Shown in pieces: positions 1,066 to 5,880 of a stretch of DNA of 28,815 bases. Both the position numbers and the translations under genes were made by a program. Numbering within the stretch: position 1 is the stretch's first letter; each line of letters starts with the position of its first letter. The DNA comes from Candidatus Sumerlaeia bacterium (GTDB taxonomy: Bacteria; Sumerlaeota; Sumerlaeia; SLMS01): the NCBI GenBank assembly GCA_038208905.1, contig JBBQYG010000037.1, positions 1 to 28,815 of the forward strand, given 5' to 3'. The notes under the pieces are model-generated. The model worked only from the letters and a program-made list of their open reading frames with translations, did not search any database and was not told the DNA's origin.

Positions 1066-1167
1066 GGACGCACGACGCAACAATCCCGGAAATCATCTTT
1101 GCCTCCCGCCCGAAACGGTGAATAGAATCCCTCGCCCGGCGTAATCAAGGTGGAGGAACCGCGTCCC

Positions 1168-3720
1168 ATGTCAGACCAGCGCAGGCAGCGTCGCCACTCG
1201 ATCATCGCCATCGTGAATATCGCGCTGGCGATTGGCGGGCTTCTGCTGGTGGTTCCGTCGATTTTGCTGATCCAGAAGATTCGGGCTGTACATACGAATT
1301 CCTCGGCGGAGGACTCGGCGGTGGGGCTGGGGCTGGCCGGCATGGACGAGGGTACGCGCCTGCGGAATGCGCACGAGGCGTTTCACGTCCGCCTTGCGCA
1401 GGAATTGCATGGGGCCCAGAGCCTCTCCTCCGCGGGGGCGCGTGAACTCGCGATGAAGGCGATGCCGGAACTGACGGGCCTCTCTCCCGAATCCGTCGAA
1501 CGGATCTTCCGCGACCGGTCCGCCTACTTCGCATCCGCGGATTGGCTGACCGCGATTGATCGCGGCCTGATCGCGCTGGCCGCCGGTGACTACGACGCCG
1601 CGCTGCGGCTCGCCGCGGCAGGGGATGGCAACCCCCGCGATCTTGCCACCATCGAGGGAACCACCGCCCTCGCCAAGTACCGCGACGGCCTCGGTCCCGA
1701 GTGGCAGGATCGCTCCCTCTCCGCCTTCGCGCGCGCCTTGGAACTTACATCGGAGACCGACGAACCCGCCGCCTGGGCGAAAGTGGCGGTATGGGTGGCA
1801 GCGGCACAAGCAAGGCGGGGTGCCTATGCCATCGCCGAACCGCTCATGCGGCGCGCGGTGGCGGTGGAGGAGGCAGTCCACGGTGAGACGATGCGCCTCG
1901 CCCCTCGCCTCGCCGAACACGCGGCTTTGCTTGCAGGGACGAGGGAACTCCCCGAGGCCGAGGCCCTTTCACTCCGCGCCGTCGCAATCGCGGAGCGGCT
2001 CGGGGAATCCGACACCGAGGCATTCGCCGATTTGCTCGATATTCTTGCGAGCATCCATCAGTTCGCCGGGCGCCACGCGGAGGCGGTGCCGGTGTGGGAG
2101 CGCGCGCTGATCCTCACCGAGAGACTCCTCGGCCCCGATCACCACAGTGTCGCCCGGCGCCTTGGCGGATTGGCCGAATCGAAAGCAAAGCTGAGAGAGT
2201 ATGCCGAGGCGGAGGCCCTCTATCGACGCGCGCTTGTCATCGAGGAACAGTGCTTTGGCGTCTATCACCCAACGGTGGCCAACACGCTGTGGAGGATTGC
2301 GGACCTGCTGCTGGACACGGCGCGGCGAGACGAGACGGAACAAATCGCGACGCGCGCGGCGCAGATCGAGGCGAAGCTGCCACCGGCAGGCAGCCTCGCC
2401 ACCGGCACTCGTCAATTCCTGAGAGGGAGCGTTCTCATCGGGCTGGATCGACACGCCGAGGCGGTCCCTGCGATTCGGTCGGCTCTCTCCATCATGGAGA
2501 ATCACTTCGGCCCCAACCACCCTAACCTGAAGACGCTGCTGGAGTCCCTCGCCATGGGCCTTTCCAGAATGGGAAACCACGACGAGGCGGTCGCTCAACT
2601 GCGTCGCGCTCTCGAAATCCATGAGGCGCAGCCGGACCTGGAGCCGATCCGGATGGCGTTCACCCTCAGGTTGCTGGGCGACATTCTTACCAAGGCCGGC
2701 GCGGCCGAGGAGGCAGTAGGCTTCTATCGACGCGAGCTCGCGATCATCGAAGCCCACCATGGCCCCAGCCACCCAAAGGTGGCGACGAACCTCAAGAGCC
2801 TTGGCACGCTCCTATTCGAAGGAGGCTACGAGGTTGAGGGGGAGACGCTCCTGCGGCGGGCCCTCTCCATTGACCAGGCTGAACTGGCCCCCGACGACCC
2901 GGCGCTTGCCTTGCGGCTCTTCAGTTTTGCCGACCTTCTTGCGGTTGCCGGCCGCCACACCGAGGCGGAGGCGATCCTGCGGCGCGGGCTTGCAATCACC
3001 GAGCCTCGCTCCGCCACTGAACCCGAAATGGCGGTCCGGGGACTGACAAGAATTGCACGGCTTCTGACCGACTCGGGACGGTATGCCGAGGCGGTTCCCT
3101 TGGCCCAGCGCGTCGTTGATCTGGTCGGACCCGCGCTCGGGGAGGAACACCGAAATTTTGCCGGAGCCCTGGTCGTTTTGGGTCGGGCCCAGCTTGGCGC
3201 GGGCGAGACGTCCAAAGCGATCACGACCGCCGACCAGGCACTGACGATTTACCGGCGGGACTTCAATCCGCGCCAGTGGCGAATCGCAACCGCGCTTGAG
3301 CTACGCGCGGACTCCCTCATCTCGCGCGGCCTGCCCAACGACGATCTCCTCGCGGAGGAATCCATCGCGGAAGCACTGGACACCTATCGGGATGCAGACA
3401 TGGCCGAATATGGCCGATTCGCCATCGCCCTCCGAAGCTCCGCCAGCGTGAAGCGCGCGCGGGAAGACCACTCGGGCGCCGCGGAGGACCTGCGCGAGGC
3501 AATCCGAATCGATCTCGAATTGAGCCTCCCCCCGATTCTCAATCTCGCAGACTCCCACCACCAACTCGCCCTCGCCCTCACCGCCGCCAACGACCCCGCC
3601 GCCGTGGCCATCGCGGCGCAAACCGCCGCCGACCATCGCGCCCGCTACGAAGCCCAGGAATCCCACGCCGCCACGATGATCGCGGCGAATCCCGATTGGC
3701 CGTTTCGACCAGCCCCGTAG
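1168..3720 (+). CDS. Membrane-anchored tetratricopeptide repeat (TPR) protein, kinesin-light-chain-like 42-aa repeats
   Basis: ATG 1168 follows GGAGG (alternative GTG at 1150). Basic N-terminus followed by a TM helix (IIAIVNIALAIGGLLLVVPSILLI). Repeated EAE.LY.RAL.I.E...GP.HP.VA..L..LA units. No catalytic domain recognised. Confidence 0.88.
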   Translation: MSDQRRQRRHSIIAIVNIALAIGGLLLVVPSILLIQKIRAVHTNSSAEDSAVGLGLAGMDEGTRLRNAHEAFHVRLAQELHGAQSLSSAGARELAMKAMPELTGLSPESVERIFRDRSAYFASADWLTAIDRGLIALAAGDYDAALRLAAAGDGNPRDLATIEGTTALAKYRDGLGPEWQDRSLSAFARALELTSETDEPAAWAKVAVWVAAAQARRGAYAIAEPLMRRAVAVEEAVHGETMRLAPRLAEHAALLAGTRELPEAEALSLRAVAIAERLGESDTEAFADLLDILASIHQFAGRHAEAVPVWERALILTERLLGPDHHSVARRLGGLAESKAKLREYAEAEALYRRALVIEEQCFGVYHPTVANTLWRIADLLLDTARRDETEQIATRAAQIEAKLPPAGSLATGTRQFLRGSVLIGLDRHAEAVPAIRSALSIMENHFGPNHPNLKTLLESLAMGLSRMGNHDEAVAQLRRALEIHEAQPDLEPIRMAFTLRLLGDILTKAGAAEEAVGFYRRELAIIEAHHGPSHPKVATNLKSLGTLLFEGGYEVEGETLLRRALSIDQAELAPDDPALALRLFSFADLLAVAGRHTEAEAILRRGLAITEPRSATEPEMAVRGLTRIARLLTDSGRYAEAVPLAQRVVDLVGPALGEEHRNFAGALVVLGRAQLGAGETSKAITTADQALTIYRRDFNPRQWRIATALELRADSLISRGLPNDDLLAEESIAEALDTYRDADMAEYGRFAIALRSSASVKRAREDHSGAAEDLREAIRIDLELSLPPILNLADSHHQLALALTAANDPAAVAIAAQTAADHRARYEAQESHAATMIAANPDWPFRPAP

Positions 3721-3781
3721 CTGATACTCTCCCCCCCGCGCCCACTTATCCCCTGCTTCCCCCTGCTCTTCCCTACATCTT

Positions 3782-3833
3782 CCCGCCTTTCCCCGCCTTT
3801 TCCGCCGTTCCCGCCTTCCCCGCCGTCCCCCTC
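3782..3833. repeat. Degenerate 9-bp tandem repeat (CCCGCCKTY, about 5 units) within a pyrimidine-rich tract
   Basis: cccgccttt-c-cccgccttt-tccgccgtt-cccgccttc-cccgccgtc-cccctc. The same unit recurs at 23958-24055. Confidence 0.75.
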
Positions 3834-3866
3834 AAAATAAATCGTCCTGCCTTGGTCGATTTGCCG

Positions 3867-3895
3867 TTGACTCGGGGGTGGCTCATCCATAGGTT
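3867..3895 (+). promoter_or_regulatory. Putative sigma70 promoter for tuf/S10 operon
   Basis: TTGACT (3867-3872), 17-bp spacer, TAGGTT (3890-3895). AT-rich aaaataaat tract lies upstream (3834-3842). Confidence 0.6.
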
Positions 3896-3901
3896 CCCCG
3901 T

Positions 3902-4280
3902 CCGCCGCTAGAGGAATAGGCCACCCGGCCAAGTCCTTGTGCGGAACGCGGGTTGCGGAGTCCCTCACCGCAGCATGGGCCTGAAAAGGCCTCGACCGCC
4001 CAGCGACTGAGTCATCGGTCGAGCAGAGGAAGACGAGGGCGCCTTCCGCAGCCGGCAAACCGCGCATCCGCGCGACTTGCTGGCGCGCCAGTGCGCCCAC
4101 CACGTCCTCCTCCCATCGAAGCCAGGCCAGAAGCGCAGGTCCGCGGGGCAGAATCCACCGGAAACGGTGGCCAAGCTCAAGCGGGGGAGGCGCGTCGCTT
4201 GCGTCGCTGGTCGGCGAAGGCTCCCCGCCGAAATCGGGAGCGGGACTGAGAAGTCTCAGAACAACGACCCACGACTGGGA
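3902..4280 (+). ncRNA. Candidate large structured 5' leader / ncRNA upstream of tuf (unassigned family)
   Basis: Nested helices: tgcggaa 3940-46/ttccgca 4044-50; gttgcgg/ccgcagc; ggcct-GAAA-aggcc; ctcgaccg/cggtcgag; gccggcaa/ttgctggc; ccaccg-GAAA-cggtgg; gctccc/gggagc; gact-GAGA-agtc. No credible ORF. Confidence 0.55.
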
Positions 4281-4287
4281 GCTGATC

Positions 4288-5478
4288 ATGGCGAAGGAAG
4301 CATTCAAGAGAGACAAGCCGCACGTCAACATCGGAACCATCGGTCACATCGACCATGGCAAGACCACGCTGACGGCCGCCATCACCAAGACCCAGGCCTC
4401 GAAGGGCTTTGGCGAGGCTGTGGCGTTCGACCAGATCGACAAGGCGCCGGAGGAGAAGGAGCGCGGTATTACGATCAATACCTCGCACGTCGAGTATTCG
4501 ACGGCCAACCGCCACTATGCCCACGTCGATTGCCCGGGCCACGCCGACTATATCAAGAACATGATCACGGGAGCCGCGCAGATGGACGGCGCGATCCTGG
4601 TGGTTGCCGCGACCGATGGCCCGATGCCCCAAACGCGCGAGCACGTGCTGCTTGCCCGCCAGGTCAACGTGCCCGGCCTTGTGGTGTTCCTCAACAAGTG
4701 CGACATGGTGGACGACGAGGAGCTCCTCGAGCTCGTCGAGATGGAAGTCCGCGAGTTGCTTAGCAAGTACGACTATCCCGGCGACGAAACGCCGATCATC
4801 CGCGGGTCGGCCCTCAAGGCCCTCGAGGGCGAGAAGAGCGCGCTTGGCGTCGATGCGATCACCAAGCTGATGGAGGCCTGCGACAGCTTCATCAAGGAGC
4901 CGATCCGCCAGACCGACAAGCCCTTCCTGATGCCGGTCGAGGACGTGTTCTCGATCTCCGGCCGCGGAACGGTCGTCACCGGCCGCGTCGAGCGCGGTCT
5001 GCTTAAGAAGATGACGGACGTTGAGATCGTGGGCCTTGTGGACACGCGTCGCTGCGCCGTGACGGACATCGAAATGTTCCGCAAGCTGCTGGACGAGGCG
5101 ATCGCCGGCGACAACGTCGGCCTCCTCCTCCGCGGCATCCAGAAGGAAGACGTCGAGCGCGGCATGGTTCTCTGCGCTCCCGGCTCCATCAAGGCGCGGA
5201 CGAAGTTCAAGGCCTCCGTGTACGTCCTCACGAAGGAAGAAGGCGGGCGCCACACCCCGTTCTTCAAGGGCTACAAGCCCCAGTTCTACTTCCGCACGAC
5301 CGACGTGACGGGCGCGGTTCACCTGCCCGAGGGCGTCGAGATGGTCATGCCGGGGGATAACATCGAGATCGTCGGCGAGCTGATGAAGCCGATCGCACTC
5401 GAGAAGGAACTCCGTTTCGCCATTCGCGAAGGCGGACGCACCGTCGGCGCCGGCGTCGTGTCGGAAGTCCTCGAGTAA
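4288..5478 (+). CDS. tuf: Elongation factor Tu
   Basis: [35 protein letters not shown] motifs; 396 aa. Confidence 0.99.
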
Positions 5479-5490
5479 CGAAGCGAATCC

Positions 5491-5534
5491 AGGGCGGGGG
5501 CCGAGCATACGGCGGCCCCCGCCCTTGTCTTTTT
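5491..5534 (+). terminator. Intrinsic terminator-like hairpin between tuf and rpsJ
   Basis: 13-bp stem agggcgggggccg (5491-5503)/cggcccccgccct (5513-5525) followed by tgtcttttt. Confidence 0.75.
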
Positions 5535-5565
5535 CGATTCTCCAGAGAGCACACGGAAGCAAATC

Positions 5566-5880
5566 ATGGCCAGTCAAGTCATCCGCATCAACCTTTGGTC
5601 CTTCGACAGCCGGCTGCTGGATTCGTCCGTGCTGTCGATCGTCGAGACGGCCCGCAACACCGGCGCCAGCATTGCCGGCCCGGTGCCGCTTCCCACGCGG
5701 ATCCGCAAGTTTACCGTCAATCGCTCACCCAATGGCGACAAGAAGAGCCGCGAGCAGTTCGAGATGCGCCAGCACAAGCGCCTCGTGGACCTCATCGACC
5801 CGCCGCAGAAGACGCTGGACGAACTGCAGAGCCTTGACCTGCCTGCGGGCGTTTACGTCGAGATCAAGCTTACCTCGTAA
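5566..5880 (+). CDS. rpsJ: 30S ribosomal protein S10 (NusE)
   Basis: [32 protein letters not shown]. Confidence 0.98.

Follow-up and report, generated by a model that had tools for sequence, protein, structure and literature searches.

What lies between the promoter and the EF-Tu gene (tuf) of a Sumerlaeota genome, and does it act as RNA? Few bacterial proteins are as abundant as EF-Tu, and the S10-type gene cluster codes for much of the ribosome; to our knowledge, the control of their output is largely unknown beyond a few model lineages. The question is raised by a contig of a Candidatus Sumerlaeia bacterium (JBBQYG010000037.1; the whole stretch of 28,815 nucleotides analyzed here is called the window), where a sequence-only reading had proposed a highly structured RNA of ~385 nt between a sigma70 promoter and tuf, being either a new regulatory leader or a co-transcribed large noncoding RNA. 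The features discussed below are collected in Table 1.

Table 1. Features of the tuf leader and its surroundings in the window
Feature	Position	Strand	Details
Putative promoter	3867..3895	+	-35 TTGACT 3867-3872, 17-nt spacer, -10 TAGGTT 3890-3895
P0, 5′-terminal stem-loop	3905..3944	+	ccgc 3905-3908/gcgg 3941-3944; gagga 3911-3915/tcctt 3934-3938; ggcc 3919-3922/ggcc 3927-3930
Three-way junction P1/H1/H1b	3948..3999	+	
P1	3948-3951/3996-3999	+	GCGG/CCGC
H1	3952-3958/3968-3974	+	Loop 3959-3967, CCCUC at 3962-3966
H1b	3977-3982/3987-3992	+	GAAA loop
Proposed kissing loop	3962-3966/4035-4039	+	
Variable linker insertion hairpin	4004..4021	+	cgac 4004-4007/gtcg 4018-4021; from the sequence; not conserved
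P4 hairpin	4028..4047	+	GGAAG 4028-4032/CUUCC 4043-4047; loop 4033-4042, GAGGGC at 4035-4040
P4b hairpin (domain iii of the sequence-only reading)	4051..4084	+	gccggcaa 4051-4058/ttgctggc 4077-4084; inner cgcgc/gcgcg; minimum free energy (MFE) fold
C/U-rich tract, 3′ strand of P5	4096..4114	+	
Nonconserved GC-rich spacer (domains iv and v of the sequence-only reading)	4115..4267	+	No alignable conservation; z = -0.68 and -0.56
Small hairpin	4268..4290	+	ccca 4268-4271/tggg 4276-4279; from the sequence; overlaps Shine-Dalgarno GGGAG 4277-4281; weak
tuf start codon	4288-4290	+	
tuf (EF-Tu, 396 aa)	4288..5478	+	Leading gene of the operon; ORF and NCBIfam EF-Tu, 742 bits
Terminator-like hairpin with T-run	5511-5523		Between tuf and rpsJ
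rpsJ	5566-5880	+	Next gene after tuf; then rplC, rplD, rplW, rplB, rpsS, rplV

Positions 3902-4287, counted from the predicted start, form the 5′ untranslated leader of the tuf-rpsJ-rplC-rplD... operon (EF-Tu plus S10-type) in this Sumerlaeota bacterium. The proteins encoded 3′ of tuf (S10, L3, L4, L23, L2, S19 and L22) all exceed their NCBIfam cut-offs. A promoter of the form TTGAC-N17-19-TA-N3-T is found at the homologous site in 21 of 30 tuf-upstream regions, so the arrangement noticed in the window is conserved; sigma-70 screening does not flag TTGACT/TAGGTT, because its -10 hexamer matches at only 3 of 6 positions. Transcription would start at about 3902 and run into a GC-rich discriminator. 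As expected of an r-leader, the interval thus lies in the 5′ untranslated region of a ribosomal protein operon, with a conserved promoter upstream and with tuf and ribosomal protein genes downstream. Between 3400 and 5700 the only terminator-like site is the one after tuf, and none is in the leader. In four RNA runs, with small shares in the run search (0.06-0.11), read depth is confined to 4255-4800 (contigs 90-99% alike), which is the conserved coding part of tuf and derives from other organisms; the leader has no coverage.

It is evident that the leader as a whole folds better than expected on the plus strand. The MFE of 3902-4287 is -195.6 kcal/mol, compared with -167.2 ± 5.8 kcal/mol in 100 dinucleotide shuffles (z = -4.92, 0/100), whereas on the minus strand z is -1.77 and 7/100 shuffles are as good; the earlier preference for the plus strand is therefore supported. 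The stability is unevenly distributed. When parts were shuffled separately (dinucleotide shuffles), z is -3.17 (0/100) for the 5′ half (3902-4050), -4.83 for domain i of the sequence-only reading (3902-3945) and -2.74 (0/100) for its domain iii (4051-4095), against -0.68 for domain iv (4096-4200) and -0.56 for domain v (4200-4287). The spacer parts that match the latter in 20 relatives show a mean z of -0.74 on the plus and -0.57 on the minus strand, with 3/20 below -2 on either strand. Hairpins of the type CCAG-N-CUGG were seen by eye at the Shine-Dalgarno position in one family (f1), and RNAalifold failed to recover them. The conserved structured RNA domain is only the 5′ ~215 nt of the leader (3902-4114), and the remaining ~170 nt resemble ordinary GC-rich spacer. 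Of the ~385 nt of structure first claimed, the overall excess over shuffles and the 5′ part have stood, and conservation and covariation in relatives extend to the 5′ ~215 nt but not to the 3′ part; domains iv and v lack conservation in relatives and are not supported.

Within the conserved domain, all the pairings listed by the sequence-only reading are present in the sequence, yet the relatives select among them. Its domain i survives as the inner part of P0, to which the MFE fold adds an outer stem. Among 18 order-level relatives, pairing between the two halves of P0 within a genome is stronger than pairing with halves from other genomes (-15.6 kcal/mol for self versus -10.7 kcal/mol for cross pairs, 0/5000 derangements, L016 left out). 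From its domain ii, a multiway junction, the hairpins gttgcgg/ccgcagc and ggcct-GAAA-aggcc are retained. The helix said to close it, tgcggaa/ttccgca (3940-46/4044-50), is unsupported: in every relative TTCC has GGAAG as its local partner, and the 5′ hairpin is closed by gcgg at 3941-3944. The pairing ctcgaccg/cggtcgag belongs to an insertion specific to the window and competes with P1; its formation would break P1 and H1b, and the linker hairpin at 4004-4021 is the alternative to it. Only some relatives (L020, L025 and L031) have insertions at this position.

What is conserved is a three-way junction followed by the hairpin P4. RNAalifold on an unbiased MAFFT alignment recovered P1 and H1, with compensatory changes in 8 of the 15 pairs. 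Among 41 sequences aligned to the leader model, double changes occur in 7/7 pairs of H1 (92.9% paired), in 4/4 pairs of P1 and in 5/5 pairs of H1b, although the latter is paired in just 67%; H1b is capped by stable GAAA or UUCG loops in several relatives. P4 is 87.8% paired, and one sequence (L034) has the variant GGAAAG/CUUUCC. Overall, 88.4% of the cells in this alignment are paired compared with 73.2% in shuffles (0/500), and the covariation score is 0.352 compared with 0.12 (at most 0.086 in slid controls), figures that come from rows fitted to the model and nonindependent relatives, including one sequence (L168, from G015) that is not upstream of tuf. The leader therefore has the covariation-backed conserved secondary structure that is characteristic of r-leaders.

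A long-range helix, P5, encloses P4 and is formed by the purine-rich linker 5′ of P4 and the C/U-rich tract, which in relatives lies 28-85 nt 3′ of P4. Duplex energies of P5 against mononucleotide shuffles were uninformative (mean z = -0.16), and P5 was assessed by self-versus-cross pairing in their place. Among 21 order-level relatives, the run is 7.86 for self and 6.26 for cross pairs and the energy is -14.9 versus -11.6 kcal/mol (0/5000 derangements). With the linker that does not overlap P4, the window's own sequence ranks last of the 21. Here, positions 4103-4112 pair with 4026-4035 instead (9/10 pairs); because this helix shares bases with the 5′ arm of P4, the two are alternatives in the window, and the MFE fold contains the helix and not P4. 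Domain iii of the sequence-only reading, now P4b, is supported in position: relatives have a hairpin of variable sequence at the same place 3′ of P4.

The loops of H1 and P4 behave differently from the stems. CCCUC in the H1 loop and GAGGGC in the P4 loop are nearly invariant over 11 families and complementary to each other, whereas all the stems vary, which argues for a specific tertiary contact or for recognition. The five loop-loop pairs are 100% paired in all rows that have letters at these sites, four being invariant and one showing a single compensatory change. This is the double change to CCCUG with CAGGG in one relative (L063, from G023), where the identity of the locus as a leader was checked; in another (L021, from G011), UGGGG preserves a U-G pair. 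The compensatory change favors a kissing contact between the two loops, as judged from sequence comparison. The support for the contact is one compensatory event, and the invariant loops could instead be two separate recognition sites.

We then sought to address how widely this RNA is distributed and whether it belongs to any known family. Rfam 15, with its models for r-protein leaders, riboswitches, T-box, tmRNA, RNase P, SRP and 6S RNA among others, gives no match at the gathering score over the whole window, and none in the tuf loci of 20 relatives. At E ≤ 10, region 3650-4350 has only two chance-level matches, both on the minus strand and far under threshold (MIR1437, 19.3 bits versus 168; FAM13A-AS1_2, 12.6 versus 38). 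The earlier statement that the interval has no tRNA or tmRNA signature, and no sign of another known family, is borne out, and a literature search found no paper on this RNA. The leader model has a single match in the 4.2-Mb genome from which the window comes and hits 34 of 75 Sumerlaeota genomes. The two-part loop signature is found upstream of tuf in 45 of the 52 assessable Sumerlaeota genomes, representing 11 of 15 families. A pattern search of 185,579 species genomes returned 25 matches with tuf 113-351 nt downstream, 24 in genomes titled Sumerlaeota or BRC1 and one in a metagenome-assembled genome titled "bacterium". In contrast, none of 80 metagenome tuf loci used as a negative control, with EF-Tu 72-79% identical and presumably from other phyla, has a model match at E ≤ 0.1. 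Credible matches in other genomes are upstream of tuf on the same strand; the match elsewhere in G015 is without the H1 loop motif and within an apparent coding sequence. These results show that the leader domain is a well-supported new RNA family, specific to Sumerlaeota and outside Rfam. For the two options first offered, they favor the regulatory leader (no Rfam match, covariation, single copy), and nothing indicates a separate noncoding RNA.

What might the domain do? It probably helps to set the output of the translation machinery. Our preferred explanation, with a probability of roughly 45%, is that the tuf-S10 operon has a new cis-regulatory leader peculiar to this lineage, to which one of the operon's own products most likely binds. 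The kissing contact between H1 and P4 would lock a specific tertiary fold, and this fold would be the binding site for a ribosomal protein or, less likely, for EF-Tu. Binding would exert feedback on tuf and the downstream ribosomal protein genes after transcription has started, and the domain would count as an autoregulatory r-leader. In the window, P4 with its kissing loop on the one hand and the helix 4026-4035/4103-4112 on the other may constitute a switch. The ribosome-binding site is ~170 nt downstream of the conserved domain in the window, and among relatives the domain and the start codon are 113-351 nt apart, a long distance for translation to be controlled directly.

Many r-leaders mimic rRNA. 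When the 16S and 23S rRNAs of two complete relatives, G036 and G033, were searched for sequence words, no GAGGGC proved common to both, and a CCCUC-containing look-alike of the H1 loop in the 23S rRNA of G036 is a helix that covaries away in G033. Several specific roles were rejected. As an anti-Shine-Dalgarno strand, the C/U tract pairs no better with the Shine-Dalgarno region of its own leader than with those of others (-14.6 kcal/mol for self versus -14.8 kcal/mol for cross pairs, 3337/5000). As a Rho-loading site, its C-minus-G maximum in a 30-nt window exceeds that of shuffles (P < 0.05) in no more than 2 of 39 leaders, and a role as the 3′ strand of P5 accounts better for the C-rich tract. 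The word GTTCTTTG/TTCTTTGA, which we take to be boxA-like, is common to the rRNA leaders of G036 and G033. Autoregulation by NusB/NusE (S10) through boxA was discarded, as a boxA-like word with at most one mismatch is present in 0 of 30 tuf leaders and is absent from 3601-5700 of the window.

A very unlikely variant is that the leader senses 30S subunits, with GAGGG in P4 mimicking a Shine-Dalgarno sequence and CCCUC in H1 mimicking the anti-Shine-Dalgarno sequence. The 16S rRNA of Sumerlaeota ends in ...CACCUCCUUU. The ribosomal anti-Shine-Dalgarno sequence would compete for the P4 loop against the H1 loop and open the kissing contact; the leader would then refold through the P4/P5 alternative, so that free 30S subunits would be sensed directly. 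If true, cells would couple the production of EF-Tu and ribosomal proteins to their idle ribosome capacity, with no dedicated repressor protein.

Explanations other than feedback by an operon product have to be weighed against the same evidence. It is possible, if doubtful, that the domain senses nothing and is a structural element that protects tuf mRNA, which is highly expressed, from 5′-end-dependent decay, directs processing or organizes the folding of the leader. A conserved stable hairpin (P0) only ~4 nt from the predicted 5′ end and the stably capped H1b would suit such a role, as would the negative searches for an expression platform and a binding partner (terminator, Shine-Dalgarno pairing and rRNA words). 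However, a protective 5′ hairpin has no need of invariant loop sequences, and those of H1 and P4 persist through 11 families in which every stem has changed; the combination of a junction, a kissing loop and an enclosing helix is also more elaborate than any stabilizer that we know of. A riboswitch, whose aptamer would bind a small molecule or an ion tied to translation capacity such as a guanine nucleotide or an alarmone, seems unlikely. Aptamers typically combine covarying stems around a few invariant nucleotides with a tertiary contact between loops, the 5′ untranslated position fits, and an alternative helix competes with P4 in the window. Yet riboswitch classes usually serve several genes of a pathway and this RNA occurs once per genome, before tuf only; it has neither an adjacent terminator nor a supported Shine-Dalgarno-sequestering helix, and none of the Rfam riboswitches is similar to it even when E ≤ 10 is allowed.

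We give little credence to processive antitermination, in which the leader would act on RNA polymerase for read-through of the tuf-S10-spc cluster and of the terminator-like site after tuf. The put and EAR elements are folded RNAs that act on RNA polymerase in this way, and the position at the head of a long operon, the two hairpins with conserved loops and the terminator-like hairpin with its T-run in the tuf-rpsJ gap would all be in keeping with it; however, no Rfam family is similar, and the boxA-like word GTTCTTTGA of the phylum's rRNA leaders is missing from 30/30 tuf leaders (at most one mismatch). It is highly improbable that release or termination turns the 5′ domain into an independent trans-acting small RNA. 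Its conserved part is compact (about 150-215 nt), begins at a conserved promoter and is followed by nonconserved leader, but there is no terminator-like site 3′ of the domain, the alignment contains no second promoter signature ahead of tuf, and the domain always immediately precedes tuf in the same orientation. The chance is close to negligible that the structure reflects accidental pairing in GC-rich noncoding DNA, or the insertion of a small nonautonomous (MITE-like) mobile element ahead of tuf. The high GC content of 67%, a caveat raised at the outset, and the failure of domains iv and v to beat shuffles would agree with chance pairing, and covariation that exceeds every control speaks against it; a mobile element should show several copies and patchy presence, whereas one copy is found in the window's own genome and the same position is occupied in 45 of 52 genomes from 11 families.

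The autoregulatory leader proposed here combines a compact fold with a testable tertiary contact. We know of no pure culture of Sumerlaeota, and the leader offers a handle for genome annotation in this phylum, for a new Rfam entry and for experiments on the homeostasis of the translation machinery. If its binding partner is not a ribosomal protein, it would represent a new type of sensor.

Regulatory kissing loops are known from the cobalamin, lysine and purine riboswitch classes. Like these, the Sumerlaeota leader has two complementary conserved hairpin loops on covarying stems, and its GAGGG resembles a Shine-Dalgarno sequence; unlike these, the GAGGG loop has no start codon at a usable distance, and the leader matches nothing in Rfam, is single-copy and serves one operon. 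A 2016 study of tufB reportedly found that EF-Tu synthesis is adjusted after transcription has started, in a translation-coupled manner, through structure at the tufB ribosome-binding site. The proposed Sumerlaeota mechanism would likewise set EF-Tu output after initiation through folding of the mRNA close to the beginning of a tuf gene, although its domain is 113-351 nt before the start codon and has no counterpart outside the phylum. Two candidates upstream of the S10 gene, the S10 r-leader of Firmicutes/Clostridia (PMC7247131) and the rpsJ motif of Peptostreptococcaceae (PMC11109978), are described by comparative genomics as lineage-restricted. They are like the Sumerlaeota leader in being lineage-restricted leader candidates, with a protein ligand described as unknown or presumed. 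They differ in belonging to other phyla and in lying directly before rpsJ rather than before tuf; the window and the loci of 20 relatives have no Rfam match.

The S10-operon leader of Escherichia coli is regulated by ribosomal protein L4. Its distribution is reported to be narrow (PMC3616713). It shares no sequence or structure homology with the Sumerlaeota leader, as seen from the lack of an Rfam match. The Sumerlaeota operon opens with tuf, and its leader is built from a junction and a kissing loop and is confined to Sumerlaeota. An attenuator hairpin with a U-run inside the leader, as in L4 attenuation of the E. coli type, was not found in the search of 3400-5700, so that the Sumerlaeota leader also differs in this respect. 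The two systems are alike in having a structured 5′ leader ahead of the rpsJ-rplC-rplD... block and in presumed feedback by a product of the operon.

Immediately downstream of tuf lie rpsJ, rplC, rplD, rplW, rplB, rpsS and rplV, and the 87-nt tuf-rpsJ gap holds a terminator-like GC hairpin with a T-rich tail (5511-5533), which could be a partial terminator allowing an excess of EF-Tu over ribosomal proteins. Upstream of the interval 3902-4287, the putative promoter TTGACT-17-TAGGTT proposed by the sequence-only reading is present, and a homologous arrangement is kept in relatives: the form TTGAC-N17-19-TA-N3-T is conserved in 21 of 30 tuf-upstream regions in a MAFFT alignment. At 3780-3830, which is 37-87 nt upstream of the -35 box, a 9-nt unit (consensus TTCCCGCCT) is repeated about five times in tandem within a pyrimidine-rich tract. 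The repeats are followed by an A-rich stretch (3832-3842), and several relatives have an A-run at the equivalent place. ARAGORN called an 89-nt tRNA-Gly(GCC) on the minus strand (1575-1663) within the 856-aa TPR-protein ORF, which is probably a false call in GC-rich coding sequence; the leader model matches the same site at 13 bits, which is chance level.

Features of the tuf leader and its flanks (window coordinates)
Feature	Position	Sequence or remark
TPR-repeat protein gene	1150-3720	upstream flank of the interval
Putative promoter	3867-3872 (TTGACT), 3890-3895 (TAGGTT)	17-nt spacer; from sequence
P0	3905-3944	5' hairpin
P1/H1/H1b	3948-3999	three-way junction
H1 loop	3962-3966	CCCUC
P4	4028-4047	hairpin
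P4 loop	4035-4039	GAGGG
C/U-rich tract	4096-4114	3' side of long-range helix P5
tuf	4288-5478	downstream flank of the interval
Conserved core, 5' to 3'		GCGG; hairpin with loop (U/A/C)CCCUC; second, variable hairpin; CCGC; purine-rich linker; P4 segment
P4 segment of the core		GGAAG, 1-3 variable bases, GAGGGCG(C/A)C, CUUCC

The + strand of 3902-4287 has a minimum free energy of -195.6 kcal/mol, compared with -167.2 ± 5.8 for 100 dinucleotide shuffles, none of which folds as well (z = -4.92), whereas z is -1.77 for its reverse complement. Both claims, an unusually stable fold and an RNA on the + strand, therefore stand, and all the pairings listed in the earlier reading are found in the sequence. 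Against dinucleotide shuffles, z is -4.83 for 3902-3945, -3.17 for 3902-4050 and -2.74 for 4051-4095. The two 3' domains proposed at about 4106-4190 and at 4203-4275 are hardly more stable than shuffles, with z = -0.68 for 4096-4200 and -0.56 for 4200-4287. In 20 relatives, leader sequence lying over 90 nt past P4 has a mean z of -0.74 (+) and -0.57 (-), and z falls below -2 in three of the 20 on either strand. Because z stays near the shuffles both in the window and in these relatives, the 3' ~170 nt of the leader behave as ordinary GC-rich spacer. What had been described as a new structured RNA of ~385 nt is a real, apparently undescribed family, but its size is ~215 nt. Rfam 15 gave no family at threshold in the whole window and just two minus-strand matches, at chance level, at E<=10; ARAGORN called nothing within the interval, in agreement with the sequence-only reading, which saw no tRNA or tmRNA signature there, and the tuf loci of 20 relatives had no Rfam match.

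When tuf-upstream DNA from 30 genomes was aligned with MAFFT, a conserved core was evident directly 3' of the promoter. RNAalifold recovered P1 and H1 from this unbiased alignment, with compensatory changes at 8 of 15 pairs; conservation and covariation in relatives, which had been proposed as a check, are thus both observed upstream of tuf. A covariance model was then built from 20 order-level sequences. Among 41 related sequences, which were aligned to the model and are thus fitted to it, 88.4% of cells are paired versus 73.2% in shuffles (0/500), and the covariation score is 0.352 versus 0.12 in shuffles and at most 0.086 with slid partners. One of the 41 rows (locus L168 of genome G015) is not upstream of tuf and is without the H1 loop motif. 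Double changes are found at 7/7 pairs of H1 (92.9% paired), at 4/4 pairs of P1 and at 5/5 pairs of H1b, yet H1b is just 67% paired; P4 is nearly invariant (87.8% paired). Two helices of the sequence-only reading are not retained: the closing helix 3940-46/4044-50 shows no conservation and clashes with P0 and P4, and ctcgaccg/cggtcgag lies in a window-specific insertion and clashes with P1 and H1b.

P0 and P5 keep their structure and not their sequence. Self pairing of P0 is -15.6 kcal/mol versus -10.7 for cross pairing (0/5000 derangements; 18 sequences, L016 left out). For P5, formed by the linker 5' of P4 with a C/U-rich tract 28-85 nt 3' of P4, the mean run is 7.86 for self versus 6.26 for cross and the energy -14.9 versus -11.6 kcal/mol (0/5000 derangements, 21 sequences); in L028, for example, AGAGAGAGAAAC pairs with its exact complement, and in L034 ACUGGAAACA with its complement. 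P5 is shifted in the window, where 4026-4035 pairs with 4103-4112 (9/10 pairs) and overlaps the 5' arm of P4. The window's minimum-energy fold uses this helix in place of P4, and the window ranks last of the 21 for P5 with the non-overlapping linker.

The H1 and P4 loops, both outside the covariance model, are complementary in all rows with letters of the 41-row alignment. Four of the loop-loop pairs never vary. The fifth is changed on both sides in G023 (CCCUG with CAGGG), and UGGGG in G011 keeps a U-G pair. The promoter and downstream blocks of the G023 locus identify it as a genuine tuf leader, although its contig stops before tuf. We read these loops as a probable kissing loop, backed by one independent compensatory event.

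In the window's own 4.2-Mb genome the covariance model has a single match (3939-4050, 67.2 bits); at E<=0.01 it matches 34 of the 75 species genomes sampled from the phylum. A less strict signature of two parts, a P4-type hairpin with CCCU[C/G] at most 220 nt upstream, is found in 45 of 52 assessable tuf-upstream regions and in 11 of 15 families; two more tuf genomes were excluded because the contig ends at that place. The genomes without it are two of family f6, in which a tRNA gene closely precedes tuf, G029, G049, two of family f11, and G041, which is the sole assessed member of another class and has a tRNA at that place too. An exact-pattern scan of 185,579 species, one genome each, gave 79 loci, of which 25 have a tuf start 113-351 nt downstream (24 Sumerlaeota/Sumerlaeia/BRC1 and one 'bacterium' MAG). 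In the remaining 54, no tuf follows within the locus; one is a Sumerlaeaceae match at the locus end, and the 53 from other phyla we take as chance matches. No match was obtained at E<=0.1 in 80 metagenome tuf loci (72-79% EF-Tu identity). A small mobile element before tuf was considered and rejected, given one copy in the window's own genome and the signature in 45/52 regions.

Some leaders show further features. At L164 (G034), the short spacer that directly follows the apparent fusA end contains the motif and its own TTGAC promoter-like site, and P4 begins just 128 nt before tuf. Family f3 (L018, L022, L024, L026, L034, L035) has a second conserved block in the last ~150 nt before tuf, roughly GCGGCUUUGCGG ... 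CCGCCCUCGAG AUUCC ... GGGAUAAUC CGAGGUCAGCAAAA GCCGC, with apparent nested pairing; a block of this type also lies downstream of the motif in L063. This second block matches no Rfam family, and the window's family lacks it. Family f7 (L154, L155, L156, L158) has other conserved blocks 3' of the motif, 30-250 nt before tuf, such as GCGGCGTAAGCC, and GTTGTACCA(T/A)TTTTGGAGGATCAAAAA around the ribosome-binding site.

In one phylum only, the tuf-S10 transcript thus begins with a structured domain that is conserved, strand-specific and present in a single copy; its mode of action, in every part, we infer. A single site in each genome, placed without exception before one and the same translation operon, and loop nucleotides that stay invariant while the stems covary are together the pattern of leaders that bind a product of their own operon; our first-ranked reading (probability roughly 45%) is that the domain may be such a leader. 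No conserved counterpart of GAGGGC was found in the 16S and 23S rRNA of two complete relatives (G036 and G033); a 23S segment of G036 that resembles the H1 loop is not kept in G033, where it has covaried. The domain might instead serve stability or folding with no ligand, a possible but rather unlikely explanation, and a riboswitch appears improbable. The C/U tract does not pair specifically with the Shine-Dalgarno region, and a small hairpin over the Shine-Dalgarno was not recovered by RNAalifold. As a C-rich Rho-loading site, the tract was not significant (2/39).

The leader has no terminator-like site, the sole one in 3400-5700 being at 5511-5523, after tuf. An antitermination RNA is very unlikely. 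A boxA-like word common to the phylum's rRNA leaders occurs in 0/30 tuf leaders. In G036 and G033 the 16S and 23S genes are not adjacent (L169-L174; 3.169 and 0.160 Mb in G036, 4.165 and 4.035 Mb in G033), and each has its own leader with GTTCTTTGA or a near copy. No part of the leader was covered by RNA-seq runs. A separate small RNA seems the least likely of these four alternatives.

The S10 leader of E. coli is controlled by L4, and tufB is reportedly autoregulated in Salmonella; both are among the closest kinds. The S10 r-leader of Firmicutes (PMC7247131) and the rpsJ motif of Peptostreptococcaceae (PMC11109978) are also among the closest. By the Rfam test none of the four is homologous to the Sumerlaeota leader, and none is known to stand before tuf as it does. 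No description of such a tuf-leader element came up in full-text searches, and the supplementary motif lists of surveys (PMC7247131, PMC11109978 and others) could hold a counterpart. The structured leader of the tuf-S10 operon is a real RNA family, specific to its lineage and apparently undescribed. Its particulars are new, but many lineage-specific elements of this kind are now being found.
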